Source: Candidatus Forterrea multitransposorum CG_2015-17_Forterrea_25_41 (GTDB lineage: Archaea; Iainarchaeota; Iainarchaeia; Iainarchaeales; CSSED10-239). Taken from it: a DNA stretch of 64,000 nt. The stretch lies in assembly GCA_009392915.1 (NCBI GenBank), contig CP045477.1:480001-544000 (forward strand), given 5' to 3'. Shown here piece by piece: positions 4,197 to 64,000 of the stretch. Position numbers and translations under genes: made by a program. The notes beneath the pieces are model-generated. The model saw nothing but the letters and a program-made list of their open reading frames with translations. It made no database searches and was not told the DNA's origin. Every line of letters starts with the position of its first letter. The stretch's first letter is position 1.

Positions 4197-7100
4197 TCAC
4201 TTTATATCGAGTCTTTTAAACAACTCGTCCTTTTCATAATTATATTGAGAGATAATACTATTAAAATCTTTGTAATTGTATACTTTTGAATCCTTCATCC
4301 ATCTCATAAGTTTCTTTTTCTTTAAAAAATCAACAACATTTATTGAAGAAGATAAAAGATTAATATTGTATTTATTTTCGGATATTTCTAAATCTACAAC
4401 TACACTTTCATTTTTATTAATTATTTCTTTAATATTTACAATTTGATAAGTTTCTTTAAAACCTTGTTTAATTCTTTTAATTTCTATTAGAATAGATTTT
4501 TGATTAACCATTTTTAATTGTTCAATAAATTTATCAGCAACATTTGGTTTTATTGAAAAGATATTTAAGTTATACCAAGAAACATCAAAAATATCTTCTC
4601 CAAACTCATCAATTGCAATAATATCTGGTTTCTGAGAAATTGTTTGTTCAATAATTAAACGTTTACTTAAATCTGCATTATTTGTAAAAATTCTATTAAT
4701 CCATTCTTTTTGAGGAAGTTTAAATCTATCGTATGCCTGAACAGTTATAATTTTCTGATCAGGATAAAATAAAAGTATAGAATTATAAATTACAAAAGAA
4801 TCATCAACATCATGTAAAATAACTTTATAGTTTTCTGAAATTGCAGACCAGATATATGAAAATACATCTACAGAACCAATAGATGTATTAACTAAAGCAA
4901 CAGGTGTTAATGGTTCATCAAGATATTTTTTAATTACAAAAGAAGAACCTTTACTACTAGTATCTCCTAAAGAATAAAGACCTTCAACTTTATAACCATT
5001 AGGTAAATATCCATCAATCACAGGATGTTCTGGAGTTATATAGATACCCATATTTTTAGTTAAAATAGTTACAAAGTTATTTAACTCAATAATATCTTTA
5101 AAACTAATATTTGTTTTTAAAACACCATACTCTACATGGTAAACTATAAGATTTGATTTTTCACCAGAACAACTAACTTCAATTATTTTTTTATCAAGTA
5201 AAAGATTAGTTAAAATACCTAACCCAAAAAATTCTCTTTGAATAAATTTAAGATAAAGTTTTTGTTGTAATTTACCTAAACTATAAGATAATTTTTCAAC
5301 AGAAATATCAAATATTTTTTGAATATATTTATCAAGACTATGTTTATCTCCATTAAAAGAATAATAGTTTTTATCGATTGTATTAAAAAATACTTTTTTT
5401 AATTGAATATATTCTTTTTCTTGTTCACTATTAAGTTCTGGTTGTACTAAATTATAGAAAAGACCTTTAGTATTATCATAATGTATTGTAACATATGTAA
5501 AATCATCTATAGAATATTTATCAAAAATATTTTTTATATTTTCTTCAAATGAAGCAATAGGATCTTGATACACTAAAGAAGAAAATAGAGAATTGTCAGA
5601 AGATAATTTTTCTTGATATATTTCTTTATTTATTTTAACAGGATTTTTTCCAGCATCTTTTGGAAGGATATAATCCATACCTTTTTCTCTTAAGTCTTTA
5701 AATTTTTCTGCAATTAAATCATTTTTAACTTTCGGAGTTAATTTTACTTCTTTGATAATTTTAATTTCTTGTTCTTTTGGTAATGATTCTTTTTTAATTG
5801 TTTTAGATATTTTTTCATCATCATTATCTTCATCAGAATAATTCTCTTTTGAAGTAACTTTTTCTTCTCTTATAGAAGGAGAAATATATTTTTTATTTTT
5901 GTTTGAAATTTTAGATTTATCTTTTTTATTTTTAGGAGAAGAAATTTCTCTCATACCTTTATATATTCTTTCATCATCTTCTTTAGATAAATCAACATCA
6001 GAAAATACTTTTTTAACATCTTCTTCATCTTTATCTATTTTCTCATTTAAAACATTAACATCAAATTTTTCTTTTTCTTTTTCTTCTAAAGTTTTTGATT
6101 TTTTTAATTTAGAAATATTATTTTCAATTTCAGAATTTAATTTTACTTGATTATTATCAATTACAAAATTTGGTGTTTTTTCAGAAGATTCATTTGTTTT
6201 AATTTCAGAAGATAAAGAAGAATCTTCATTTAAAACTTTTAAATCATTTTTTGAATCTTTATCATATACAGAAAACTTATCTTCAACAGTGTTAGATAAA
6301 TCTTTAACATCATCTTCAATTGCAAAAATATCTGGAACTTCAATTTCTTCAAATAAACCATTAGCCTCACCTAAAGAAGAATTATTTAAATGAGAACTAG
6401 AATTTTTAGAATCTATTTCTAAATTACCTGTGTTTTTAGGAAAATCATTTGAATTTGCTAAAGTTTCTTTATTTTGAGAATCTTTATTTTTATTTACAGA
6501 TAAATGATCTATTTTTGAATATAAATTTTTAACATCATACTTTGGAAAATCAATTTTACTTTTTTTAGGTTTATCATCTAAAAAAGAAAATGATTCTAAA
6601 TAAACTTCTTGATCAAGTTTACTTGCTTTTTTATTTAATTGATCTAATAAATCATCTACATTTTCATTTTTTGATTTTACTTCTGAAAAAATATCATTTG
6701 ATTCTTTACTTTCAGAATATTCTTTTGGTTTAGATACATTTTCTAAAATATCTTTCAAAAGAGACATGGTTTTTTTATTATTATTTGATTCATCAAAATT
6801 TATTTCTTTTTTAATTGAATTATCAATATGATCTATTTTAGGCTCACTTATTAAAAATGAATTTGAAGGTTTTATTTTTTTTTCAGAAGATGAATCCGAA
6901 AGTAGTAGTTCATGAGATGAATCAGGGAGTAATAATTCATTATTAATTTTTGATGAAATTAATTTATTAGATGTTGATTTTTTATCAACTTTATCTAAAG
7001 GAACTTCTTTTTTAAAAATATTAGAATTATCAACCTTATCTAAAGGAACTTCTTTTTTAGAAATATTAGAATTATCAACTTTATCTAAAGGAACTTCTTT

Positions 7101-7547
7101 TTTAGAAATATTAGAATTATCAACTTTATCTAAAGGAACTTCTTTTTTAGAAATATTAGAATTATCAACTTTATCTAAAGGAACTTCTTTTTTAGAAATA
7201 TCTAAATTATCAACTTTATCTAAAAGAATCTTTTTTTTTCTAAAAGGATTAAAATCTTTATATTTTTCTTCAATATCAGAAGTGTCAACTTTTAAGTTTA
7301 CTTTCTTAACATCATTATAATTTTTATTTAAAGAAAAATCATCTTTTTTAGTTTCTGGTAAAACTACATCAAATTTTTGTAATTTTTTAGAATTACTATT
7401 ATTTTTTAAAGAACTATCAATTTTATCTTCTTTTAAAGAACTATCAAATTTATTATTTTTTACAGAATCTGAAGCTTTAGATATAGATTTAGATAGAGGA
7501 ATTCTTTTAATAACCTTAAAACCAGAAAAATTATCCTCTCCACCCAT
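4197..7547 (-). CDS. FlaI/ArlI/VirB11-family secretion-ATPase homologue with degenerate Walker A (predicted catalytically inactive), fused to a ~630-aa low-complexity Lys/Asp/Ser-rich N-terminal extension containing 15-aa tandem repeats
   Basis: The C-terminal ~480 aa align by eye to FlaI: YVTIHYD…LVQPELNSEQEKEY, IEVSCSGEKSNLIVYHVEYGVLKTNISF, KGSSFVIKKYLDEPLTPV, YIWSAISEN. Where FlaI has GETASGKTT the sequence reads HDVDDSFVIY, and the His-box region is also lost. A Walker B-like PDIIAIDEFGE remains. Confidence 0.6.
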   Translation of the reverse strand: MGGEDNFSGFKVIKRIPLSKSISKASDSVKNNKFDSSLKEDKIDSSLKNNSNSKKLQKFDVVLPETKKDDFSLNKNYNDVKKVNLKVDTSDIEEKYKDFNPFRKKKILLDKVDNLDISKKEVPLDKVDNSNISKKEVPLDKVDNSNISKKEVPLDKVDNSNISKKEVPLDKVDNSNIFKKEVPLDKVDKKSTSNKLISSKINNELLLPDSSHELLLSDSSSEKKIKPSNSFLISEPKIDHIDNSIKKEINFDESNNNKKTMSLLKDILENVSKPKEYSESKESNDIFSEVKSKNENVDDLLDQLNKKASKLDQEVYLESFSFLDDKPKKSKIDFPKYDVKNLYSKIDHLSVNKNKDSQNKETLANSNDFPKNTGNLEIDSKNSSSHLNNSSLGEANGLFEEIEVPDIFAIEDDVKDLSNTVEDKFSVYDKDSKNDLKVLNEDSSLSSEIKTNESSEKTPNFVIDNNQVKLNSEIENNISKLKKSKTLEEKEKEKFDVNVLNEKIDKDEEDVKKVFSDVDLSKEDDERIYKGMREISSPKNKKDKSKISNKNKKYISPSIREEKVTSKENYSDEDNDDEKISKTIKKESLPKEQEIKIIKEVKLTPKVKNDLIAEKFKDLREKGMDYILPKDAGKNPVKINKEIYQEKLSSDNSLFSSLVYQDPIASFEENIKNIFDKYSIDDFTYVTIHYDNTKGLFYNLVQPELNSEQEKEYIQLKKVFFNTIDKNYYSFNGDKHSLDKYIQKIFDISVEKLSYSLGKLQQKLYLKFIQREFFGLGILTNLLLDKKIIEVSCSGEKSNLIVYHVEYGVLKTNISFKDIIELNNFVTILTKNMGIYITPEHPVIDGYLPNGYKVEGLYSLGDTSSKGSSFVIKKYLDEPLTPVALVNTSIGSVDVFSYIWSAISENYKVILHDVDDSFVIYNSILLFYPDQKIITVQAYDRFKLPQKEWINRIFTNNADLSKRLIIEQTISQKPDIIAIDEFGEDIFDVSWYNLNIFSIKPNVADKFIEQLKMVNQKSILIEIKRIKQGFKETYQIVNIKEIINKNESVVVDLEISENKYNINLLSSSINVVDFLKKKKLMRWMKDSKVYNYKDFNSIISQYNYEKDELFKRLDIK
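6983..7231 (-). repeat. Coding tandem repeat, 45-nt unit x ~5.5 (encodes KKEVPLDKVDNSNIS repeats) inside the FlaI-like gene
   Basis: Near-identical units ttatcaactttatctaaaggaacttcttttttagaaatattagaa repeat head-to-tail with a few substitutions. Confidence 0.85.
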
Positions 7548-32528: not shown

Positions 32529-32608
32529 AAAAATTAATCCTAGTTTTTATTTTTTGAAAAATTAGATGAATGCTTGACCATCGCTCTTCAACTAAGTAAA
32601 GAGTTGAG

Positions 32609-32681
32609 TGCCTCGAGCCAGATTTGAACTGGCGGTCTCCAGATTATGAGTCTGGCGCTTTAACCACTAAGCCACCGAGGC
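32609..32681 (-). tRNA. tRNA with CAU anticodon (elongator Met or Ile2-type)
   Basis: Hand-folded. Acceptor GCCTCGG/TCGAGGC, anticodon arm CCAGA-CUCAUAA-UCUGG, T arm GCCAG-TTCAAAT-CTGGC, discriminator A. No initiator features (no G-C triplet in the anticodon stem, G1-C72). Confidence 0.75.
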
Positions 32682-38721: not shown

Positions 38722-41692
38722 CTTAAACTTTACTCGAACCATTAGTATTAGAGAGCTTAAATACTCGCCCGAAGGCTTGCATCGTATACTCCTAACCTAT
38801 CAAACCGGTCTTCTTCCGGAGTTCTCGTCTCGCATTTCTGCGAAAATGGCTGTCTCGTTTTAGGGTTCGCTTCGTGCTTAGATGCTTTCAGCACTTATCG
38901 AATACAGCGTAGCTACTGGGCATTGCCTTGTCAGACAACCCACACACCAGAGACTGCGACCCATCGTTCCTCTCGTACTAAACGGATCTTACCTTCAAAC
39001 AACCAACACAACCAATAGATAGGAACCAAACTGTCTCGCAACGTTCTTAACCCAGCTAATGTACGGCTTTAATGAGTGAACACCTCCACCCTTGGCTGCT
39101 TGTGCACAGCCAGGATGCCGTAAGCCGACAGCGAGGTAGCAAACCGCGGGGTCGATGTGAACTCTCACCCGCGACAACCCAGTTACCCCCAGGGTAAGTT
39201 CACTGTCAGACTAGGCCCCCATAAATAGGGACACTAGCGTTCGCTAGACCCAAGTTTCCTTCCAACGTTCCGTGCTTTTAAGAACATTGTTAAGCCTGCT
39301 TTTGGTCTTGTCCTCTACGGCTGATTTCTGACCAGCCTGAGCAGACCTTTGGACGCCCCTGATATCTTTTCAGGGGCGTACCGCCCCAGTCCAACCACCC
39401 GATCAAGTGATGTCCGTCATATAGACGTAAGTTGTATTTTTCCTACTAGATGGTGTTACATTGGCGTCTGACTACTTCCTAGCGAAAGCAGCTAAAGCGA
39501 CTCCCATCTACGCTCTATAGTAAAAACAATACAACAACACCAGACTGTGGTAAACCTCCGTGGGGTCTTATCCTCCCATTGGTTGTCCGTGGCTTATTCA
39601 CCACGCTAAGCAAGTTCACTAAGTTAAAGTTAGGGACAGTGACGATCTCGTTACTTCCTTGGTGCAAGCCGACATTTAATCGGCAAGGTATTACGCTACC
39701 ATGAGAGCCTCAGAGTTAGGCCCGCTCTTTACCAGCGCTTAGACCAGTTGGACCTGGCGTTCACGTACTAGCAGTGAGCAGAAGTCAGTGACTATACACA
39801 CCGTTTCCGGCTAGCAGTCACCTGTGTTTTTGATAAACAGTCGGACCATCTTTGTAATTAAAACTTACAGTTTACTCAACCGTAAGCACCCCTTCTACCT
39901 AAGATACAGGGCTAATTTGCCGAATTCCCTTAACTTTATTCTCTTATTACGCTTTGGCCTATTCAGCCAGGGACACCTTTCTCAGTTCTGGGTACGAACA
40001 ACAATACACTTTATAGTTTCTTTTTCATGGACCCTTGGCCTTGATAAAAGATTTCTCCCATTCACCTCTTTAATCTCCATCTCATTATTATAATTCTCCG
40101 GAGATCTATAAGGTTTAGATATGCAGACAAGCATACTCCACCTTGCCAAAAGTGTTAGAAACTATACTTGCGTTACCACACGTGCATTATCGGTACAGGA
40201 ATATGAACCTGTTTCCCTTTCGTCATTCTTCGAGTTACGAAGAGACTTAGGATCGACTTACCCTTAGCTAAAGATTAGTGCTAAGGAACCCTTGCCCTTT
40301 CAGCGGAAATGATTCTCACATTTCTTTGATGTTACTATCGCGAGGATCCATATCTTTGACAGATCCAGTGGACGTTACCCCCCACCTTCTGCTCTATCAA
40401 AGCACCTACCTACCAGATCACATATTGCATGTGCTCTATGATATCGGCGACAAACTTAGCCCCGTTAATTTTCAAGGCAATCGTCCTAGATTGGTGAGCT
40501 ATTACGCACTCTTTAAAGGATGGCTGCTTCTAAGCCAACCTCCCAATTGTCTTAGGAAAACTACTCTTTTCGAATTTACACTTAGTTTGTACTTAAGGGC
40601 CTTAATCATAGTCTGGGTTTTTTCCCTTTTGGAACAGAGGCTTACCCCCCGCCCCCTACTCTGGACTTCTTAGAAAATAACAGATTCGGAGTTTAACAAG
40701 AAAGGTGGAAATTTCTTCCCAGTACTTTCTAATCAGTAGCTCTACCCCGTTATTCTTCTCCATCCATGCTAACCTCAGAGTTATTTCGATAGGAGCCCGC
40801 TATCACCAGGTTCGATAACCTTATCAGTCCTACTCCCAAGTCATACGAACAGTTAGACTAGTACCGCTTATGACCTCCACCAACCAGGCGGTTGGTTTCA
40901 TCAAGCTCAGGAGTTTATCACCTGGTTTCGGGTCTAGTTTATGTGACTTAAGGCACAGTTAATACCTTTAGCCCTCAGAATCTTGCGGCACATCGGTTTC
41001 CCTACGACACAACGACTTAATCGCTTAGTCTTGCCACACAAACTAACTCCCTCGCCCGTGCTTCGTGACGGACAGTGTGACCCTGATCAAGTAATTTGCG
41101 CTTTAAAAGTTACCTTTTATCACTTATAAATTACTCTCATTCCTTTCAAGCCACACCCGCGCTGTCACCAATTAGTTTCAAGTGCTTTTTACTCCCCGTC
41201 AAGGGATCTTTTCAACATTCCTTCGCAGTACTCGTTCACTATCGGTCTTGTGTTATATTTAGAATTAGCTGTAAATGCCAGCTATTTTCTTACGCGATAT
41301 CCAACGCGCAATACTCTAGGACATCGGAAATCTTCTCAGATATCTTCTGCTTACGGGACTATCACCCTCTATGGTAGATCTTTCCAGATCGCTTCAACTT
41401 AAATATATAAGAAGTAACCAAGCCATACCCCACATGTCTCTTATATTACTATAAGAGATTCGGTTTGTTCTCTTCTGCTTTCGATCAACTCTATTTACAG
41501 AATCACTATTGTTTTCTTTTCCTCCAGGTACTAAGATGCTTCAATTCCCTGGGTTACCCCTTCACCTTATTTTCATAAAGTGAATAATTCAGAAATCTTG
41601 GGATCAAAGGTTGCATGCACCTACCCCAAGCTTATCGCAGCTTGCCACGTCCTTCATCAGTACACAAGCCAAGTTATCCACTAATTGGTTTA
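38722..41692 (-). rRNA. 23S (large-subunit) rRNA, archaeal
   Basis: The reverse complement contains domain V/VI landmarks: GCTGGGTTAAGAACGTTGCGAGACAGTTTGG, the sarcin-ricin loop TAGTACGAGAGGAAC, the A-loop GGAGGTGTTCAC, and the 5' region GATGAAGGACGTG. GC-rich relative to its surroundings. End coordinates are approximate to within ~10 nt. Confidence 0.9.
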
Positions 41693-41748
41693 GCTAAAAT
41701 TTAAGAATCATTTTTTTTTAACCAAATAAACTTGCTTTTGTTATTATT

Positions 41749-44313: not shown

Positions 44314-45696
44314 TTATTTTAAAATAAGATTAAACTTCTTTTTATTTCTTTTATTAAATAAATAATCTATGTCAGTTTCTTTAATAGTTACTTTTTTAGA
44401 TTTAATAATCTTTATTTTATCTCCATTTTTAAGAAGATGAGACTTATCTTTAATTATTTCTCCATTAATTTCTGCAAAATAAAAATATTTTGCAAAATCA
44501 GAATGAAGAGAAAATGCAAAATCTAGAAGAGTTGATTTTTTTGGGATTACAATTTCTTGATTTGTTTGGGTATAAACACTAATATAATCTATATATGAAA
44601 TATCTTTTGGTTTTTCAATTAATGTTTTATCTTTTAAAATATTAATTAAACGATTATCTTTTTCAGAAAATTCAATATTTTTATAGTGGAAATGAGCAGA
44701 AACACCAAACTCAGCATTGTTATGCATATCTATAGTTCTTATTTGTATTTCTAAAGGAAATCCATCTAAAATAATATTTAAGTGAATAGATTGATAACCA
44801 TTTTCTTTAGGATGCTTAATAAAATCTCTTACCTTTATATCATTATTCTCAATTACATTCAAATTATCTTTAATAAATTTTAAAGCAACATAACATTCTT
44901 TCTTAGAATTATAAATTAACCTTAAAGCATAAATATCTAAAACTTCATCAATATTATTTTTTTCTTTTCTAATAAATATTTTCTGAAATAAACTACCAGG
45001 ACTTTTATATCTATAATTATAAGTTATTGGCTTATGACCTGAATTTTTTAAAAGATTAATAACAGTTTCTTTTAAAGAAGTAAGTTTTTCTAAAGGATAT
45101 CTTTTTTTAAGTTCAGCATAATTTTTATTAAAACTATCTTTATATTTTAATTTCATTAGTTGAGTTAAAAAATCTTCTTTAAAATTTTGCATACCAAGTT
45201 GATAAGCTAAAGGAAAAATTGCAATTTCAATAATATCTAAAAATCTTTTTTTAAATTCAGGATCTTTTATTTTAGGAAAATAATCTAAAATAACTAAAGC
45301 TTCACCAAAAGTAATAATAATTGCTTCAATTTTAAAAAAAGACTGAACAATCATATTTTTAATTTTTATAGGAGAAATAGAAGGATTATTTATTAGATTA
45401 TAAAAATTAATAAAATAAATATCTTTAGATATCTTTCTAATAATTTTTACAAAACCCTTTTCTTTAATATTTAAATTATATTTATAAGGATTATAAAGAA
45501 CAGATGAAATTATAATATTTTCATCATAAACATTTAATCTTTTAGCAATAGCTAGAGAATATTCTACTAAAGATATATTCTTAAAAACATATTTATCAGA
45601 ATAATTATCTATAATTAAATTATATGATTTTTCAATATTTGAAGTATAATCTTTAATTAATTCTTTATATTCTTTTACAAATTTATTTTTAATCAT
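44314..45696 (-). CDS. RelA/SpoT-homologue (RSH) protein: degenerate N-terminal HD-like region, intact (p)ppGpp-synthetase motif, C-terminal TGS domain
   Basis: DIYALRLI…ECYVALKFI…DFIKHPKENGYQSIHLNI…EIQIRTIDMHNNAEFGVSAHFHYK matches the RSH synthetase signature (DYIA.PK.NGYQSLHT…EVQIRT.eMH..AE.GVAAHW.YK). IAIFPLAYQLGMQNFKEDF matches the preceding helix. The HD dyad is replaced by YN. C-terminal TGS: LLDFAFSLHSDFAKYF…NGDKIKII. Confidence 0.6.
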   Translation of the reverse strand: MIKNKFVKEYKELIKDYTSNIEKSYNLIIDNYSDKYVFKNISLVEYSLAIAKRLNVYDENIIISSVLYNPYKYNLNIKEKGFVKIIRKISKDIYFINFYNLINNPSISPIKIKNMIVQSFFKIEAIIITFGEALVILDYFPKIKDPEFKKRFLDIIEIAIFPLAYQLGMQNFKEDFLTQLMKLKYKDSFNKNYAELKKRYPLEKLTSLKETVINLLKNSGHKPITYNYRYKSPGSLFQKIFIRKEKNNIDEVLDIYALRLIYNSKKECYVALKFIKDNLNVIENNDIKVRDFIKHPKENGYQSIHLNIILDGFPLEIQIRTIDMHNNAEFGVSAHFHYKNIEFSEKDNRLINILKDKTLIEKPKDISYIDYISVYTQTNQEIVIPKKSTLLDFAFSLHSDFAKYFYFAEINGEIIKDKSHLLKNGDKIKIIKSKKVTIKETDIDYLFNKRNKKKFNLILK

Positions 45697-50385: not shown

Positions 50386-52980
50386 TTAAGAAATTATTCT
50401 TATATTAATTTCTGATTCTTGGTTTTCTAATATTTGATGAACAGTTGCATTGATATCAGTTGTTTGTGCTTTAATAATACCAACATCAGTTAAGATAGAA
50501 TCAATGTTTGTCCTAACCTCACCACTTAAAAGATTCCATGTATTTAAAGTAGTTTGATTAATTTCTTCTAACTTTTGTGCTTGTGTTTGATCCATTATTT
50601 CAATAGCTGTTTTAATATTATAAACTTCTTGACATAATGGGCTGTTGTTAGTATCTTCATTACCACAAAAGTTTTCAACTAATGCAAGATTATCATCAAC
50701 TGATGAAAATCTGTTTCTAATTTCTCCCATGTCTTCTTGATTAATTGAATTTGAAACTAACCAATTAGTATCTTGCTTAATTGATGTTAATTGATTTGTT
50801 AAATCTTCAAGCATTAAATCAAGTTGAACATTAATATTGTTTACAACTAAATCTGTCATTAAACTTGAAAGAGAATCATTTACATCAATTATCTGTGTCT
50901 GTAATGTTTGACCTGTTGAAACAACAGTTCCATTTACAGAAATCTCTAAATTATCAAGTCTTGTTGAAAGGAAATCATTTGAATCTGAAAACTTTTGTGC
51001 AATCAATGCATTTGTATAATTAAATTGATTTGTAATTTCAGTAGATAAATTAACATTAACAGCATTTAAAAGATCTGTTAAAGAAGTTGAAACATTTGTT
51101 AAATTTGTATTTATTTCTTCACCAGTTTCTGTAACAGTTGCAGTTAATGATAAATTTACATTATCAAGTTGACTAGATAATTCTGCAAATCTTAAATCAA
51201 TCTTATCTGAAAGATCAGTATTAACTGTGTTTAAAAGATTTGAAAGAGTTGTTGTTGAAAGAGAAATATTTGTATTTATCTCTTCACCTGTCTCTTCTAA
51301 ATTTGCATTTAAACTTAAATTAACATTTGTAAGTTGATCAGATAATTGATTAAATCTTAAATCAATCTTATCTGAAAGATCTGTATTAACTGTGTTTAAA
51401 AGATTTGAAAGAGTAGTTGTTGAAAGAGAAATATTTGTATTAATCTCTTCTCCAGTCTCATCTAAATTTGCATTTAAACTTAAACTTACATTTGTAAGTT
51501 GATTAGATAATTCTGTAAACTTTAAATCAATCTTATCTGAAAGATCTGTATTAACTGTATTTAAAAGACCAGTTAAAGAAGTTGAAACATTTGTTAAATT
51601 TGTATTTATTTCTTCACCAGTTTCTTCTAAATTTGCAGTTAAACTTAAATTTACATTTTCTAAATTATTTTGAGAAGTATTAAAATCTTCTTCTAATTGA
51701 TTTAATAAATTATTATTTACTGAATTTAATAAATCTAAAATATTTGTTGTAGAAGTATTAATATTTGTATTAATCTCTTCTCCTGTAGTTGTAACTGTAC
51801 CTGTTAAATTTAAACTAACATCATTTAAATTTGCAGTTAAAGAATTATAATCAAATTCCATTTGATCTAAAAGACCAGAATTAACTGAATTTAAAAGATT
51901 AGTTAAATTTGTGTTTGTAGTATCAATATTTGTATTTATTTCTTCGCCTGTTAAAAGAACAGTTCCTGTTAAATTTAAACTAACATCATTTAAATTTTCA
52001 TTTAATGAATTTAAATCAGAATCCATTTGATCTAAAAGACCAGAATTAACTGAATTTAAAAGATTAGTTAAATTTGTGTTAGTTGCATCAATATTTGTAT
52101 TAATTTCTTCACCAGTAGATGCAATTGTTCCAGTTAAATTTAAATTTACATTATTTAAATTTGCATTTAAAGAATCAAAATTTGTATCCATTTGTTCTAA
52201 AATACCAGAATTAACATTTGATAAAAGATTTTCTAAATTTGTATTAACATTTGTTAAACTTGTTTGAATTTCTTCACCAGTTGATGAAATTGTACCTGTT
52301 AAAGAAAGATCAACACCTGAAAGATCAGTTTGTAATGTTACAATTCCTTCTTGTAATTCATTTGCAAGAGTTCCATTAACATCTGCAAGTAAATCATTTA
52401 AAGAAGTATTCATGTTTGTTAAATTTGTTGTAATATATTCTCCAGTTTCAGAAATTTGACCAGCTACAGAAACATTAACATCTGCAAGTCTTAAATCTAA
52501 ATTATCTGATTTTTCGGTTAAAACACTTATTTGTTCAAGTGCTGGATTTAAGTGAAAAGATTGTGAACTTTTTACAATTGTTGCACCACTTCTACAAGTT
52601 ACTTCTTGTTCATAAGTTCCTAAAGGAGCATCTCCTAAATAATCTGTTCTATACCAGTTTCCTGCAATATTTGATTCAGACATTGGCTGATCATCAACAA
52701 ATACAGATTTGTCTGGATGCAGTATAGTTACTCTACATTCATCTATTGGATAAGGATTACCTTTATAGTCTGATAATCTAACAATAGTTGAACCATAATC
52801 TTCTCTCCAGTATTCTGTGTGAGAAACCCATTGGAAAGAAATTTCATCTTCAACAACAGTTTTTCCACTAACATAAGCAGTTGCTAAAAAGGCAACAACA
52901 ATTAATAAAACACCTAAAATACTTAATTTTAAGTATTTATTTCTTTTTTTCTTATCTGTCATAATTACTCTTAACCTCAT
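50386..52980 (-). CDS. Large membrane-anchored surface protein: N-terminal TM helix, globular domain, then ~8-9 tandem 54-aa Asn/Thr/Leu-rich repeats (coiled-coil/fibrous)
   Basis: Repeat units such as NANLEETGEEINTNISLSTTTLSNLLNTVNTDLSDKIDLRFNQLSDQLTNVNLSL. The underlying DNA units recur at a 162-nt period, for example at 51210 and 51372. Confidence 0.5.
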   Translation of the reverse strand: MRLRVIMTDKKKRNKYLKLSILGVLLIVVAFLATAYVSGKTVVEDEISFQWVSHTEYWREDYGSTIVRLSDYKGNPYPIDECRVTILHPDKSVFVDDQPMSESNIAGNWYRTDYLGDAPLGTYEQEVTCRSGATIVKSSQSFHLNPALEQISVLTEKSDNLDLRLADVNVSVAGQISETGEYITTNLTNMNTSLNDLLADVNGTLANELQEGIVTLQTDLSGVDLSLTGTISSTGEEIQTSLTNVNTNLENLLSNVNSGILEQMDTNFDSLNANLNNVNLNLTGTIASTGEEINTNIDATNTNLTNLLNSVNSGLLDQMDSDLNSLNENLNDVSLNLTGTVLLTGEEINTNIDTTNTNLTNLLNSVNSGLLDQMEFDYNSLTANLNDVSLNLTGTVTTTGEEINTNINTSTTNILDLLNSVNNNLLNQLEEDFNTSQNNLENVNLSLTANLEETGEEINTNLTNVSTSLTGLLNTVNTDLSDKIDLKFTELSNQLTNVSLSLNANLDETGEEINTNISLSTTTLSNLLNTVNTDLSDKIDLRFNQLSDQLTNVNLSLNANLEETGEEINTNISLSTTTLSNLLNTVNTDLSDKIDLRFAELSSQLDNVNLSLTATVTETGEEINTNLTNVSTSLTDLLNAVNVNLSTEITNQFNYTNALIAQKFSDSNDFLSTRLDNLEISVNGTVVSTGQTLQTQIIDVNDSLSSLMTDLVVNNINVQLDLMLEDLTNQLTSIKQDTNWLVSNSINQEDMGEIRNRFSSVDDNLALVENFCGNEDTNNSPLCQEVYNIKTAIEIMDQTQAQKLEEINQTTLNTWNLLSGEVRTNIDSILTDVGIIKAQTTDINATVHQILENQESEINIRIIS
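50890..52330 (-). repeat. Coding tandem repeat array, 162-nt unit (54 aa), ~8-9 copies with graded divergence; central copies nearly identical
   Basis: Long near-identical stretches (…cttatctgaaagatctgtattaactgtgtttaaaagatttgaaagagt…) recur at a 162-nt period. Confidence 0.7.
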
Positions 52981-60622: not shown

Positions 60623-60695
60623 GCCTCTATAGCTCAGTGGCTAGAGCGGCAGTCTTGTAAACTGTAGGTCGAGGGTTCAAATCCCTCTAGAGGCT
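60623..60695 (+). tRNA. tRNA-Thr (anticodon UGU)
   Basis: Hand-folded. Acceptor GCCTCTA/TAGAGGC, D arm GCTC/GAGC, anticodon arm GCAGT-CUUGUAA-ACTGT, T arm GAGGG-TTCAAAT-CCCTC. A TATA-like atttatatata sits ~35-45 nt upstream. Confidence 0.8.
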
Positions 60696-60767
60696 TCTTT
60701 TTATTGGGTTATAGCTATTTCACTTTTTTTGTACGCTTTTTAATCTTTTCTACACTAATAAATATTT

Positions 60768-61487
60768 ATGGATAATAAGTATTTAAAATATATAAATAAT
60801 TTTGTTGAAACTGATTTTAAAATTCCAAATGAATTTAAAAATAAAAATATGTTTGGATCACTAAAAAACTTTCATAAGGGATTAGATCCAGAAACTATAT
60901 TACGAGGACTAATTCAATTAATACCTGCAGGTGGATTGATCGAAAAATATTTGTTTGCTAATAAAGATAAAAATGAAATAAAAAAAATTTATTATTTTTT
61001 GTATTGTTATTATATACAAATAAATAAAATAATTGAGGATAATAAAAATAAAATTGATCAAAAATATTTAAAAACAGAACAATTTTATAATTTATTTAAA
61101 CAATGTATTGAAAAAATAAGATTTGAAACTGAAATTAGTAAAATTCAATTATTTAAGAATTTTCTAATTAATGCAAGTATTTTAAATAATAAAAATATAG
61201 ATAAAGAATATATTTTATCAAAATTAGATAATATTTCTTTAAATCATTTTGAAATAATAGACTGGTATTATAAATATAACTACATTATAATTACAGGGAT
61301 TGGTTCCGAATACGATCAAAATAAAAAAAAAATTAAATTAAAATATTCTTATTTTGATTCTTATGAAAATGATTTAGCAACAATTGGTTTTTTAAATAAA
61401 ATTAATGGATTAGGAAGTGTTGAACGATATTATTTAACAAAATTAGGACTTGATTTTTATAATTTTATAAAATATGATGATTTGTAA
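60768..61487 (+). CDS. Hypothetical protein (cargo of the candidate element), no recognisable family
   Basis: Track ORF. Extremely AT-rich codon usage. Confidence 0.3.
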   Translation: MDNKYLKYINNFVETDFKIPNEFKNKNMFGSLKNFHKGLDPETILRGLIQLIPAGGLIEKYLFANKDKNEIKKIYYFLYCYYIQINKIIEDNKNKIDQKYLKTEQFYNLFKQCIEKIRFETEISKIQLFKNFLINASILNNKNIDKEYILSKLDNISLNHFEIIDWYYKYNYIIITGIGSEYDQNKKKIKLKYSYFDSYENDLATIGFLNKINGLGSVERYYLTKLGLDFYNFIKYDDL

Positions 61488-61527
61488 AAATAATATCTAT
61501 GATTTTCATAAATTATTGTTTTAATTT

Positions 61528-61986
61528 TTAATAGTCTGGATTATACTTTTTAATTAATTTAGATTTTATTAATTCAATTATAAATAAAGCAATAAAAAAA
61601 TAAATTATTAATTCTATAGTAAAACTATCTCGTAAATTTATGTCGTTAAAATTGGCAAGTATTTTTGATATTAATTGTATTGATGGAATAATAAATAAAG
61701 AAAATACAATTGTAATAAATAGATTTTTATTTTTTGAACTTATAAAGCTAATATTTTTTAGCGAAAATGTTTTATATATTCTTTTAAATAAAAAAACTAG
61801 TATGCAAAGATACATAATAAAAATAATAATAATAGCAATAACTTCTTTAAATTCTGGAAATAAAACCGGAAACTTTTCATTTAAAATTATATGAATCATT
61901 GCTAAATAATATAATCCAAAATAAGATAATAAAATAATAGGTTCAAAAAAATTCTTTTTAAATTTGATTAAATTTTCTAATTTCAC
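61528..61986 (-). CDS. Small membrane protein (4 TM)
   Basis: Hydropathy. Ends 5 nt downstream of the cas1 stop. Confidence 0.3.
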   Translation of the reverse strand: MKLENLIKFKKNFFEPIILLSYFGLYYLAMIHIILNEKFPVLFPEFKEVIAIIIIFIMYLCILVFLFKRIYKTFSLKNISFISSKNKNLFITIVFSLFIIPSIQLISKILANFNDINLRDSFTIELIIYFFIALFIIELIKSKLIKKYNPDY

Positions 61987-61990
61987 ATTT

Positions 61991-63172
61991 TCACCAATTA
62001 TTCACAATTTCTTCAATATTTTTATTCATACTAAAAGGTTTATTTACTCTTGCATTCTTTTTAAGATAAAATAATGTGCCTTTTGATAAACCTTTATTCT
62101 TCCAATCAACATAAGATATATTTAATATCTTATTTCTAATTTCTTCTGTATCTTTCCTTTCTAGTTTATGTTTAGGTTTTGTAAAATCTATGTTTTTCGA
62201 TTTTTTCTTTAAAAAGTTAGATAGTTCTCTTGTTTTTAATAATATTAAATAATGAAAGTTTACTTTATCTCCTTTATATAATATCTTATGATTAAAATGT
62301 TTATTAATACTTTCTAAAACCTTTTTAGCTCCAGAAGATCTTAACCTTAAATTATAGTTTTCTGTTCTTATAAAATCCTTATCATTAATCAAATTATTCT
62401 CAATTAAATCTAAAACTGCAAGATCAACTAAATATCTAAATGGTTCTTGCATATCATAAGCTAAACTATTCTTACCATTTTGCTTTTCATGTAAAAAACC
62501 TATGTGTCTATCAAGACCAATAGAATTTATTGATTTTAAAATCTCTGCTTCTAATATAGCATATCCATAATTAAGCATACAATTAAATTGATCTCCAGTA
62601 CCTTTAGCTTCTTTCTTATATTCTCTACCTTCAAATTCATATTTTTTAGGTATAATCTTAATAAATTGTTTCCAATAATGAGAAGCAATTCTACCTTCTG
62701 ATAATAAAATATCTTGAATTGTATTTGATTTCTTAAATAATTCTAGCTCTTTACTAAAATTATTATCAATTACTGAATATCTTTCTTTTAGATAATCTAA
62801 AACTAGTTGTTGTTTTTCAAATTTAGCTTCAACAAACTTTTTAGCTAAATTTAATCTTTGAATTGAATAATCATAAGCTTTATATTGTTCAAACTTAGCT
62901 TCTGAACCTATATTCTTATATGGTAACATACTAGTAAGTAGTTGTCCATCCCAATTTAGAAAGCTAACTTGAACATAGTGTTTCATTAACCATCTAATAG
63001 CATCTAAAGTTAATTCTCCCGACCTACCATATATTACTATATGATCAATATTCATTTTTCTTGGAGAGTATACTAATGTTTCATTAACTAAATCAGTTTG
63101 ATGTTTAATTATTAGTTTTGCTTTATCTACTCTTAGGTTAATTCCATAACCATCTAATAACAATATTTTCAT
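61991..63172 (-). CDS. cas1: Cas1-family integrase, stand-alone (casposase-like: Cas1 core plus ~60-aa C-terminal HTH-like extension)
   Basis: Conserved Cas1 motifs: N-terminal MKILLLDGYGINLRVD, LLSEGRIASHYW (catalytic Glu), and NCMLNYGYAILEAEI…GLDRHIGFLHEKQNGKNSLAYDMQEPFRYLVD (His and Asp-x-x-Glu cluster). C-terminal LSKGTLFYLKKNARVNKP is HTH-like. 393 aa versus ~300-330 for CRISPR Cas1. Confidence 0.75.
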   Translation of the reverse strand: MKILLLDGYGINLRVDKAKLIIKHQTDLVNETLVYSPRKMNIDHIVIYGRSGELTLDAIRWLMKHYVQVSFLNWDGQLLTSMLPYKNIGSEAKFEQYKAYDYSIQRLNLAKKFVEAKFEKQQLVLDYLKERYSVIDNNFSKELELFKKSNTIQDILLSEGRIASHYWKQFIKIIPKKYEFEGREYKKEAKGTGDQFNCMLNYGYAILEAEILKSINSIGLDRHIGFLHEKQNGKNSLAYDMQEPFRYLVDLAVLDLIENNLINDKDFIRTENYNLRLRSSGAKKVLESINKHFNHKILYKGDKVNFHYLILLKTRELSNFLKKKSKNIDFTKPKHKLERKDTEEIRNKILNISYVDWKNKGLSKGTLFYLKKNARVNKPFSMNKNIEEIVNNW

Positions 63173-64000
63173 AAAATCTCACTTTCGGATTTTTTAATAT
63201 TTAATAATTTATTAACATTGTATCTTATTTGTAGAATTAAATCAGTTTGTCTTGTTAAACCATTAAAATTAAATTTTTGTTGTAATTTATATAAGTCTTC
63301 TCTATGATTATGTATGTAATTAGTGATATATTTAACAGAATATGTATGTTTAACATAATCTTCATTTTCATTTATTAAATCATCTTCCAATTGTATTAAT
63401 ACTTGTTTATCATCATAATGTGCTAATAAATAAAGTATCCATCTTTTTAGATTTGAAAATTCACTATCATATTTATTATATTTTTCCAGTAATTTTTTTA
63501 ATATAGTTCTAAATTCAGTTTGATTTATAACTTCTATATTATTTTCTAAAATTAATTGAACTAGTGTGTAACCAACAGAATTAATTAATTCTTTATCATT
63601 TATATTTAATTTAAGTATATTAATAAGATCATCAACGTTTTTAGCATAAATTAAATCATCTCTATATAAACTAATATCTCTTAATATTAACATTTTATTT
63701 TTTTCCGATTTTTCTTTACTTAACTCCTCTAATCTATTATTAATATATTGAATAATTTCTTTATTTTGTTTTAATCCAATGTACACAATCCTATTATCTT
63801 TTTCTATAATATCATAAACAGAATATTCGTCTTTAGTAATTTTAATTAATTCTTTACTATCTATAAAATGTTGTATATGTCTAACTGCTGTTGGTTTACT
63901 ACATTTATAATTATCCATTATAAAATTAATTAAATCAGTTTTAGGAACGAAAATTTTATCTCTTATAAATTTACTTATTTTAGGAATATCAATTTTAACC
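63169..64000 (-). CDS. Hypothetical protein, partial (open to the window end), overlaps the cas1 start by 4 nt
   Basis: The track ORF starts at 63918, but the frame stays open upstream to position 64000 (…VKIDIPKISKFIRDKIFVPKTDLINFIMDNYK…). Confidence 0.35.
   Translation of the reverse strand, partial: VKIDIPKISKFIRDKIFVPKTDLINFIMDNYKCSKPTAVRHIQHFIDSKELIKITKDEYSVYDIIEKDNRIVYIGLKQNKEIIQYINNRLEELSKEKSEKNKMLILRDISLYRDDLIYAKNVDDLINILKLNINDKELINSVGYTLVQLILENNIEVINQTEFRTILKKLLEKYNKYDSEFSNLKRWILYLLAHYDDKQVLIQLEDDLINENEDYVKHTYSVKYITNYIHNHREDLYKLQQKFNFNGLTRQTDLILQIRYNVNKLLNIKKSESEIL

Follow-up and report, generated by a model that had tools for sequence, protein, structure and literature searches.

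Gene Content and Boundaries of the Element

The DNA considered here is a stretch of 64,000 nucleotides from contig CP045477.1 (the window), near the end of which a lone cas1 gene lies behind a tRNA-Thr gene. We consider its product very probably to be the casposase of a family-2 casposon, that is, of a self-synthesizing DNA transposon integrated at tRNA-Thr. Casposons are rare, and they have been proposed as the ancestors of the CRISPR adaptation machinery. According to Pfam annotations, the genes of the window are otherwise housekeeping genes, including those for aminoacyl-tRNA synthetases, SMC, TrkAH and ABC transporters. The sequence beyond the window was taken from Joint Genome Institute (JGI) metagenome 3300007985 (contig Ga0100381_1000002, 663,621 bp), of which 10 kb on either side of cas1 constitute the locus L001 (window coordinate = 73173 − L001 coordinate).

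The tRNA-Thr gene, which a preliminary description made from the window alone had already placed here, was recovered with both ARAGORN and Rfam. A terminal inverted repeat (TIR), expected in that description directly after the tRNA, indeed starts 10 nt past it, with its partner 8.3 kb away. The two 36-nt arms are imperfect, being complementary at 28 of 36 positions (78%) and identical over the first 8 nt. Directly outside both of them lies the same 14-mer, a perfect target-site duplication (TSD) consisting of the last 4 nt of the tRNA gene (GGCT), which is left intact, and 10 nt of downstream sequence. On the basis of the TIR pair and the identical 14-mer flanking it, the element is delimited to 8,368 bp, from position 60706 to window-equivalent 69073, just the first 3.3 kb of which fall within the window. 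In a scan for direct repeats whose inner flanks form inverted repeats, this TSD/TIR pair was the top result in L001, and a TSD of at least 12 nt with a TIR of at least 22/30 was obtained in 0 of 150 simulated sequences (first-order Markov, same composition). The element terminus is GGGTTATA, the family terminus, with TATAACCC as its 3' strand, and the terminus GGGWTATA is common to eight other family-2 elements delimited in this study. A partial duplicate of the tRNA 3' end had been expected at the distal end, and the 14-bp TSD does include this 3' end, but with 4 nt rather than a 23-nt piece; for the 23-nt T-arm/acceptor sequence, the sole match in the extended locus is the tRNA itself. Similarly, polB, the partner TIR and the distal TSD do lie past position 64000, as had been supposed, whereas one TIR and one TSD copy are already inside the window (60692-60741).

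From the tRNA side, the element carries two cargo open reading frames (ORFs), the casposase gene and the gene of a 277-aa helix-turn-helix (HTH) protein, then on the other strand the genes of a ribbon-helix-helix (RHH) protein, a 210-aa HTH protein, an HNH endonuclease and a family-B DNA polymerase (PolB), and finally a further cargo ORF (Table 1). Thus, a family-B polymerase, an HNH gene and HTH/RHH genes, which the preliminary description had suggested looking for past position 64000, were found near cas1. The gene that it had seen to overlap cas1 by 4 nt and to run off the window is the 277-aa JGI call; the first ATG of this gene inside the window would give a 249-aa ORF (63169..63918). The 277-aa protein has an N-terminal HTH and a helical C-terminal part, and it is homologous and syntenic to the gene before cas1 in 21 other casposon loci, and its best match within the locus of Methanosarcina sp. 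2.H.T.1A.6 (E 1.5e-17) does not adjoin the cas1 gene there. Both HTH proteins have sub-threshold HTH matches in Pfam. PolB is 37-51% identical to the PolBs of other family-2 loci, and a comparison of the profile of its C-terminal tail with that of the Cas1 C-terminal tail gave an hhalign value of 97.5% (E 5e-12), in line with an HTH common to the two C-termini, a hallmark of family 2 (PMC4046053).

Table 1. Positions of the element, its genes and adjoining features (L001 coordinates for sequence beyond the window)
Feature	Window or window-equivalent position	Locus position	Strand	Evidence or remark
tRNA-Thr(TGT), integration target	60623..60695		+	ARAGORN; Rfam tRNA 75.5 bits
TSD, tRNA-proximal copy, AATAAAAAGAAGCC	60692..60705	L001 12468-12481		Read directly from sequence
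Right TIR, GGGTTATAGCTATTTCACTTTTTTTGTACGCTTTTT	60706..60741	L001 12432-12467		Inverted-repeat search
Cargo ORF, 239 aa	60768..61487		+	No assigned function, element-specific; GC 17%
Cargo ORF, 152 aa, predicted membrane protein	61528..61986		−	Directly downstream of cas1; hydrophobic sequence
Casposase (Cas1 homolog) with C-terminal HTH, 393 aa	61991..63172		−	Catalytic E159, H228, E243
cas1 S325* nonsense allele	62199	L010 10974		JGI sample 3300007986
Conserved family-2 core gene p277, 277 aa	63169..64000, start 64002	start L001 9171	− (L001 +)	Upstream of cas1; JGI gene call
RHH protein, 46 aa		L001 8879-9019	L001 −	Pfam RHH_1 1.2e-4
HTH protein, 210 aa		L001 8250-8882	L001 −	Homologs in 40 loci
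HNH endonuclease, 106 aa		L001 7925-8245	L001 −	PHROGs HNH 7.6e-6; CxxC...HH...CxxCH pattern
PolB N-terminal ORF, 522 aa		L001 6382-7950	L001 −	ExoI FDTET, ExoII NLAFD, ExoIII YLITD, motif A DFTSMYPT, motif B KILVNTFSYG
PolB C-terminal ORF, 288 aa		L001 5369-6235	L001 −	Starts MDTDS, motif C
Cargo ORF, 405 aa		L001 4160-5377	L001 +	No family match
Partner TIR, GGGTTATATATATCTAATTATTTTTGTACGTTTGTT	69038-69073	L001 4100-4135		Inverted-repeat search
TSD, identical distal copy	69074-69087	L001 4086-4099		Read directly from sequence
Strain-specific island, ~3.7-3.9 kb, GC 17.5%	69088-72793	L001 380-4085		Between distal TSD and Zip transporter gene

The cargo ORFs are peculiar to this element, as none of the three has a homolog in any of 76 related casposon loci. 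The 239-aa ORF has no match in Pfam, NCBIfam or PADLOC and a marginal one in PHROGs (E 0.017), and nothing usable was obtained from these four databases for the 152-aa and 405-aa ORFs. A weak paralog of the 152-aa protein is encoded outside the element (L001 658-1227; 40% over 73 aa, E 2e-8).

Identity of the Cas1 Homolog and Family Assignment

The 393-aa protein matches Pfam Cas_Cas1 (2.3e-62, residues 6-290) and TIGR00287 (2.5e-60, residues 4-325), and about 65 C-terminal residues (~326-393), which these Cas1 models do not cover, correspond in alignment to the HTH at the C-terminus of 6OPM, the family-2 casposase of Methanosarcina mazei. Among all PDB sequences, 6OPM is the top match (E 8.7e-132, 443 bits), with an end-to-end alignment of residues 1-393 to 18-414 that includes the C-terminal domain, whereas the highest-scoring CRISPR Cas1, A. 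fulgidus 4N06, reaches 133 bits (1.8e-37). The three catalytic residues align with E162/H232/E247, the active site of the M. mazei casposase (PMC6977970). These are the three motifs from which the preliminary description had recognized a full Cas1 core, and its further reading of the protein, as longer than CRISPR Cas1 by an HTH-like C-terminal segment and as a casposase rather than a CRISPR Cas1, is in agreement with these alignments. Its full-length counterparts in Methanosarcinales, Methanomicrobiales and most DPANN loci are 47-56% identical to it, and the most distant one (locus L053) is 42% identical. By exact-sequence look-up, the same protein occurs on ~40 contigs, four NCBI metagenome-assembled genomes (MAGs) among them.

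As the preliminary description had also stated, the gene stands alone. Tandem-repeat and direct-repeat searches found no CRISPR-like array in the window, no other cas family appeared among the Pfam annotations of the called genes across it or in the 10 kb beyond, and no Cas2 was found next to cas1, where the downstream ORF encodes the 152-aa hydrophobic protein. A cas2 gene or an array just past the window had been named as evidence that would speak for a CRISPR origin, and neither is present within 10 kb past it.

Family 2 was described by Krupovic et al. (2014; PMC4046053) as comprising elements of 6-16 kb with TIRs and a TSD of median 15 bp, several of whose targets overlap 4-7 nt of a tRNA 3' end. 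Its Cas1 has a C-terminal HTH, its PolB is of the RNA-primed type with a similar C-terminal HTH, and its core consists of Cas1, PolB, HNH and two HTH proteins (PMC4046053). For one of the two HTH proteins, C-terminal HEAT repeats have been reported. We compared the element with 75 loci that carry casposase relatives in archaeal and bacterial genomes, one genome per species, and with a Woesearchaeota locus, L002. Homologs, among them those in elements of Methanosarcinales, Methanomicrobiales and DPANN archaea, were found for PolB in 39-40 of these loci, for HNH in 38 (at the corresponding position), for the 210-aa HTH protein in 40, for the 277-aa protein in 21 and for the RHH protein in 13, and the gene order is kept in most of the loci inspected (e.g., L029, L015, L020, L027, L036 and L048). 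All core homologs are present in Methanosarcina sp. 2.H.T.1A.6, from which a family-2 casposon has been published (PMC4779613); in this strain, the PolB-HNH-HTH-RHH block, with the match to the 277-aa protein beside it, lies ~8 kb from the matched cas1.

Host and Distribution of Related Elements

The window has a GC content of ~23%. Two of the host proteins fall in clusters of ≥90% identity with proteins labeled "Candidatus (I)ainarchaeum sp." by NCBI. In addition, 15 of the 17 organism-labeled neighbors of the leucyl-tRNA synthetase are labeled Ca. ainarchaeum (3, 63-65% identity), Woesearchaeota (10) and Nanoarchaeota (2; 49-53% identity for the latter two groups), and the remaining ones are labeled "archaeon" and, evidently astray, "Acidobacteriota." Iainarchaeum is a member of the DPANN kingdom Nanobdellati, and the host is an AT-rich DPANN archaeon; low GC, contigs of 0.66-0.84 Mb and an unlinked 23S rRNA fit this placement. 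DPANN archaea are ultra-small, probably symbiotic, and mostly without CRISPR. The 23S rRNA gene is complete and archaeal (38722-41705, minus strand), has no adjoining 16S or 5S gene, and stands out by a local GC of 38-39% against ~23%.

In the papers of 2014 (PMC4046053), 2016 and 2023, the hosts of family 2 are Euryarchaeota, mostly methanogens, and a search of the open-access literature, with subscription-only papers outside its reach, found no report of casposons in DPANN. The locus is thus a known element type, a family-2 casposon, in an unreported host group, which accords with the earlier remark that such elements are essentially undescribed in AT-rich, small-genome archaea. Moreover, family-2-type casposases were found in at least 14 DPANN genome loci from Iainarchaeum, Woesearchaeota, Nanoarchaeota and Aenigmatarchaeota (L036, L046, L053, L048/L002, L014, L025, L027, L043, L045, L047, L049, L051, L035 and L073), and in most of them the order of the PolB, HNH and HTH genes is conserved. 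In the databases, these elements are annotated just as "CRISPR-associated Cas1" and hypothetical proteins.

Among DPANN archaea, element ends were delimited in Ca. Iainarchaeum (L036, complete genome CP064981.1; 14-bp TSD, terminus GGGATATA, TIR 30/30, 5-nt overlap with tRNA-Arg), in a Nanoarchaeota MAG (L046; 14-bp TSD, GGGTTATA, TIR 30/30, 4-nt overlap with tRNA-Ser) and in an Aenigmatarchaeota MAG (L053; ~14-15-bp TSD, GGGATATA, no tRNA in the locus). A tRNA-Ser gene is also present in the DPANN locus L025, where no element ends were found. Outside DPANN, the corresponding features are a 14-bp TSD and GGGATATA in two Methanosarcina loci with no tRNA (L029 and L044), a 14-bp TSD and GGGTTATA with a 4-nt overlap with tRNA-Leu in Methanoculleus (L020), a 14-17-bp TSD and GGGTAATA with a 6-nt overlap with tRNA-Leu in Methanolobus (L015), and a 14-bp TSD and GGGATATA with a 5-nt overlap with tRNA-Gln in a Methanosarcinales MAG (L011). 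L036 and L046 may be active elements, since in both of them the 30-nt TIRs match perfectly and a 14-bp TSD is present at the tRNA gene (tRNA-Arg and tRNA-Ser, respectively).

With a fully delimited DPANN element and about a dozen further DPANN loci, the host range of family 2 is extended. It also follows that "Cas1" labels in DPANN genomes are by themselves no evidence of CRISPR immunity.

Integration Site, Its Variability and a Proposed Mechanism

What was observed directly is the footprint of the insertion, together with the genes and their homology; how such an insertion may have arisen is suggested by the biochemistry of the M. mazei and A. boonei enzymes. A casposase tetramer would hold both 3' ends of the element (...TATAACCC-3'OH) and join them to the two strands of the target with an offset of 14 bp, across the last 4 nt of tRNA-Thr. 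The 14-bp duplication would then result from repair of the gaps, with the tRNA kept intact, and the element would be replicated by its own PolB.

Four strains with 96% nucleotide identity (L005, L006, L008 and L009, the last being GCA_015657875.1) are without the casposon. Their flank is shared with ours up to position 60699, which lies within the TSD at a distance of 4 nt from the tRNA, and then diverges; before the Zip transporter gene, they have instead a 2'-5' RNA ligase-like gene, a 117-aa ORF and a DUF3368 gene (1.8 kb). In the comparison with relatives lacking the insertion, proposed in the preliminary description, the element is missing from close strains and homology ends inside the TSD, but no exact empty site was recovered. 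The tRNA-Thr site is a strain-variable integration or variability hotspot, because the casposon and the island are found here and unrelated genes in the strains at 96% identity. There is no third TSD or TIR copy in the island within 3-4 mismatches, and hence no sign there of tandem elements. A scan of IMG/VR viral contigs for relatives of the element returned one 42-residue fragment and nothing more.

The island itself has five called ORFs, one with a PD-(D/E)xK-like C-terminus (PADLOC PDC-S69, 3e-8). The others include a metallophosphoesterase (Pfam 7e-5) and the membrane protein paralogous to the 152-aa cargo protein.

State of the Copy and Alternative Explanations

Several observations weigh against the assignment to an integrated family-2 casposon. 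Pfam detected no HEAT repeats in the 277-aa protein. PolB stays below the Pfam DNA_pol_B threshold, which its 42-50%-identical homologs pass, and in the PDB it matches archaeal PolBs alone and weakly, with E 1e-5 around motif B. Furthermore, no exact empty site was found, the strains without the casposon differing also in ~3.9 kb on the distal side. The predicted empty site reads …TCTAGAGGCT TCTTTTTATT ATTTTATTTTCAC…, and neither its 33-mer nor the element's own left-TIR 30-mer has a match in the JGI contig collection, which is uninformative because this collection does not contain the source sample.

Two explanations would take the gene out of a transposon context. NCBI and JGI label the protein "CRISPR-associated endonuclease Cas1," as would befit an adaptation module left over from, or lying apart from, a CRISPR-Cas system elsewhere in the genome, yet its similarity to CRISPR Cas1 is far below that to the casposase, the window and the 10 kb beyond contain no cas2, other cas family or array, and PolB, HNH, TIRs and TSD are all present; this origin appears extremely improbable. 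The gene could also be a domesticated "Cas1-solo," with the transposon dead and the casposase kept by the host for a cellular function, and indeed most assemblies combine an intact cas1 with a broken polB, and an element GC of 21.7%, near the 23-24% of the host, suggests long residence. We nevertheless judge domestication very unlikely, given that the full transposase architecture is kept between TIRs, that the gene is missing from strains at 96% identity, that a sister sample otherwise nearly identical over 21 kb carries a cas1 nonsense allele, and that cas1 is disrupted in a diverged copy. The related proposal of the preliminary description, an orphan Cas1 recruited to another function, is likewise not supported, because the gene lies inside a bounded transposon and the sister sample has the nonsense allele.

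Within the casposon interpretation, the main question is whether the copy is still functional. The first polB frame ends …NNIKFMV* and the other continues …YGLNEFSS…ITSGARLFL…YMDTDS. Homologs read D-I-Q-V-YGL without interruption; therefore, one nucleotide has been lost from polB in AAATTT(T)ATGG, which places the frameshift at NIKF|YGL, between motifs B and C (the region is spanned by AAATTTATGG). That the frameshift is no assembly error follows from its two products, of 520 and 288 aa, each of which is the same throughout 38-39 contigs and in four independent MAGs from NCBI. In a third sample, one base is changed in polB, and the encoded 520-aa protein also differs from ours. Contig L086, considered as a diverged copy for testing the conservation of the frameshift, proved to be the same element with one single-nucleotide polymorphism. 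Without a -1 slip, the polymerase would stop before the catalytic DTDS motif and would lack motif C.

Variation in cas1 adds to this picture. The sister sample 3300007986 (L010) differs at two positions over the 21-kb locus, one of which is TCG→TAG in cas1 (S325*), removing the region equivalent to that deleted in the M. mazei ΔHTH construct (residues 342-406), and the M. mazei casposase without this HTH had no integration activity (PMC6977970). In another population, tRNA-Thr(TGT) is likewise occupied by a diverged copy with 76% nucleotide identity (L093, JGI 3300001335), which has TATAACCC plus 14 bp, overlaps the tRNA by 4 nt and carries a cas1 disrupted close to its N-terminus. Where our element has its two ORFs, between cas1 and the right TIR, diverged relatives have restriction-modification genes as cargo: a DNA methylase and an Eco47II-type restriction endonuclease in L093, and an N6/N4 methyltransferase in L087 (SRR8925719).

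The element's GC is close to that of its host, whereas the elements of other hosts exceed their flanks in AT content by 2-16 points. On account of this, the polB frameshift, the diverged TIRs and the cas1 alleles, we moderately favor a long-resident and probably non-autonomous, decaying copy. Against inactivity, as judged from sequence, stands the fact that a -1 slip at AAA-UUU-A would restore, across the NIKF-YGL junction, a PolB of exactly the length of its homologs. A still active and autonomous element could accordingly rely on programmed -1 ribosomal frameshifting at this site, or on a split PolB enzyme: both polB frames are otherwise open with all motifs intact, the frameshift is uniform in the 38-39 contigs, and neither the TSD nor the outermost 8 nt of the two TIRs show any mismatch. 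However, PolB is in one frame in all 33 of the 33 full-length homologs examined, no canonical X XXY YYZ slippery heptamer is present at the site in the zero frame, the TIR arms differ at 8/36 positions where several relatives have 30/30, and the nonsense allele and the disrupted cas1 of the diverged copy point to relaxed constraint, so that continued activity seems unlikely. The copy is regarded as ordinary in mechanism and probably decaying rather than active, a condition that the preliminary description had no means of recognizing.

Relationships Between DPANN and Methanogen Elements

Neighbor-joining trees (200 bootstraps, no outgroup) were calculated for the casposase and PolB. In the casposase tree, our sequence groups with three metagenomic sequences (100%) and then weakly with Woesearchaeota (55% and 25%); with midpoint rooting, DPANN sequences are deep and paraphyletic, and those of methanogens form a derived crown. 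In the PolB tree, our sequence is sister to the methanogen crown clade (100%), apart from the other DPANN PolBs. In addition, our HNH and 210-aa HTH proteins are closer to those of Methanosarcinales, and TTTTTGTACGCTTT, a motif of the inner TIR, recurs in a Methanosarcina element. These mixed affinities hint that elements of DPANN and of methanogens have undergone exchange or recombination, in a direction that distance trees without an outgroup do not settle. We propose, tentatively and as a somewhat doubtful possibility, that DPANN archaea are a large unrecognized reservoir of family-2 casposons, possibly the older one, and that elements moved between DPANN cells and methanogens; this proposal is based on the 14 DPANN loci, the deep DPANN position and the differing affinities of Cas1 on the one hand and PolB, HNH, HTH and TIR on the other. 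With the loci collected here, the origin of family 2 and a possible transfer of casposons between DPANN and other archaea can be addressed.

Other Features of the Window

Tandem repeats were observed in two large ORFs of the window. An ORF of 864 aa (50386..52980, minus strand) with no Pfam match contains ~7 copies of a 165-nt (55-aa) repeat at 51099-52303, with 75-84% identity. The repeat region is its sole poorly conserved part in comparison with the strains at 96% identity, and the protein may be a variable surface protein. The second, of 1116 aa (4197..7547, minus strand), has a near-perfect 45-nt repeat at 6982-7239 (5.7 copies, 96% matches) and adjoins two T2SSF-domain genes, indicative of a locus of the pilus or archaellum type. 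On the minus strand of this reduced DPANN genome, positions 44314-45696 encode a protein of 460 aa in which precomputed Pfam annotation places RelA_SpoT and TGS domains; alarmone synthetase/hydrolase homologs are uncommon in archaea. An Rfam hit to the "Plastid-ycf2 5'UTR" at 32608-32681 (plus strand), exactly at the gathering score, is almost certainly a false positive, being antisense to tRNA-Met (32609-32681, minus strand).

Comparison with Known Systems

The element shares a Cas1-fold integrase with the same catalytic triad with both the CRISPR Cas1-Cas2 modules and the family-1 casposons of Nitrosopumilus. CRISPR Cas1 has Cas2 as its partner and integrates spacers with repeat-length duplications of 25-50 bp (PMC6977970), unlike our element, which has neither cas2 nor an array and a TSD of 14 bp. 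In family 1, PolB is protein-primed, Cas1 lacks an HTH and the target is aEF-2 (PMC4046053), whereas our PolB groups with family-2 PolBs, our Cas1 has an HTH and the target is a tRNA gene. The published host range of family 2, restricted to Euryarchaeota, is not matched by our DPANN host; however, this is a descriptive feature of the family and not a mechanistic one.

Within family 2, AciBoo-C1 of Aciduliprofundum boonei integrates site-specifically at the 3' end of tRNA-Pro with short TSDs (PMC9939771), and its polymerase has been placed in "PolB_CDTDS," a divergent PolB group (PMC7544198). By published description, our element resembles it in architecture and in the use of a tRNA 3' end, and our PolB has the related motif YMDTDS; the host and the target tRNA are different. 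The other DPANN elements (L036, L046, L053 and L048/L002) have the same core synteny and, where delimited, the same GGGWTATA termini and TSDs of 14-15 bp, and they differ from our copy in an intact PolB (859-925 aa) and, in L036 and L046, in perfect 30/30 TIRs.

The closest known systems are found among Methanosarcina. Two of these elements (L029 and L034) have PolB, HNH, two HTH proteins and RHH, in identical order in L029, and the inner TIR motif mentioned above is that of the Methanosarcina sp. DH2 element. In vivo casposition has been reported for M. mazei alone (PMC10359463). In the element of this species, the TSD measures 14 bp and overlaps tRNA-Leu by 4 bp, and the 3' ends are TATATCCC (PMC6977970). 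Our element differs from the M. mazei family-2 casposons (e.g., MetMaz1FA1A3-C2) in its target, tRNA-Thr as opposed to tRNA-Leu, in its DPANN host with 23% GC as opposed to a methanogen, and in its unrelated cargo genes, frameshifted polB and imperfect TIRs. What the two have in common is a casposase alignable over its full length, HTH included (6OPM), a 14-bp TSD that overlaps the tRNA 3' end by 4 bp, and 3' ends of the form TATAWCCC, TATAACCC in our element and TATATCCC in theirs.

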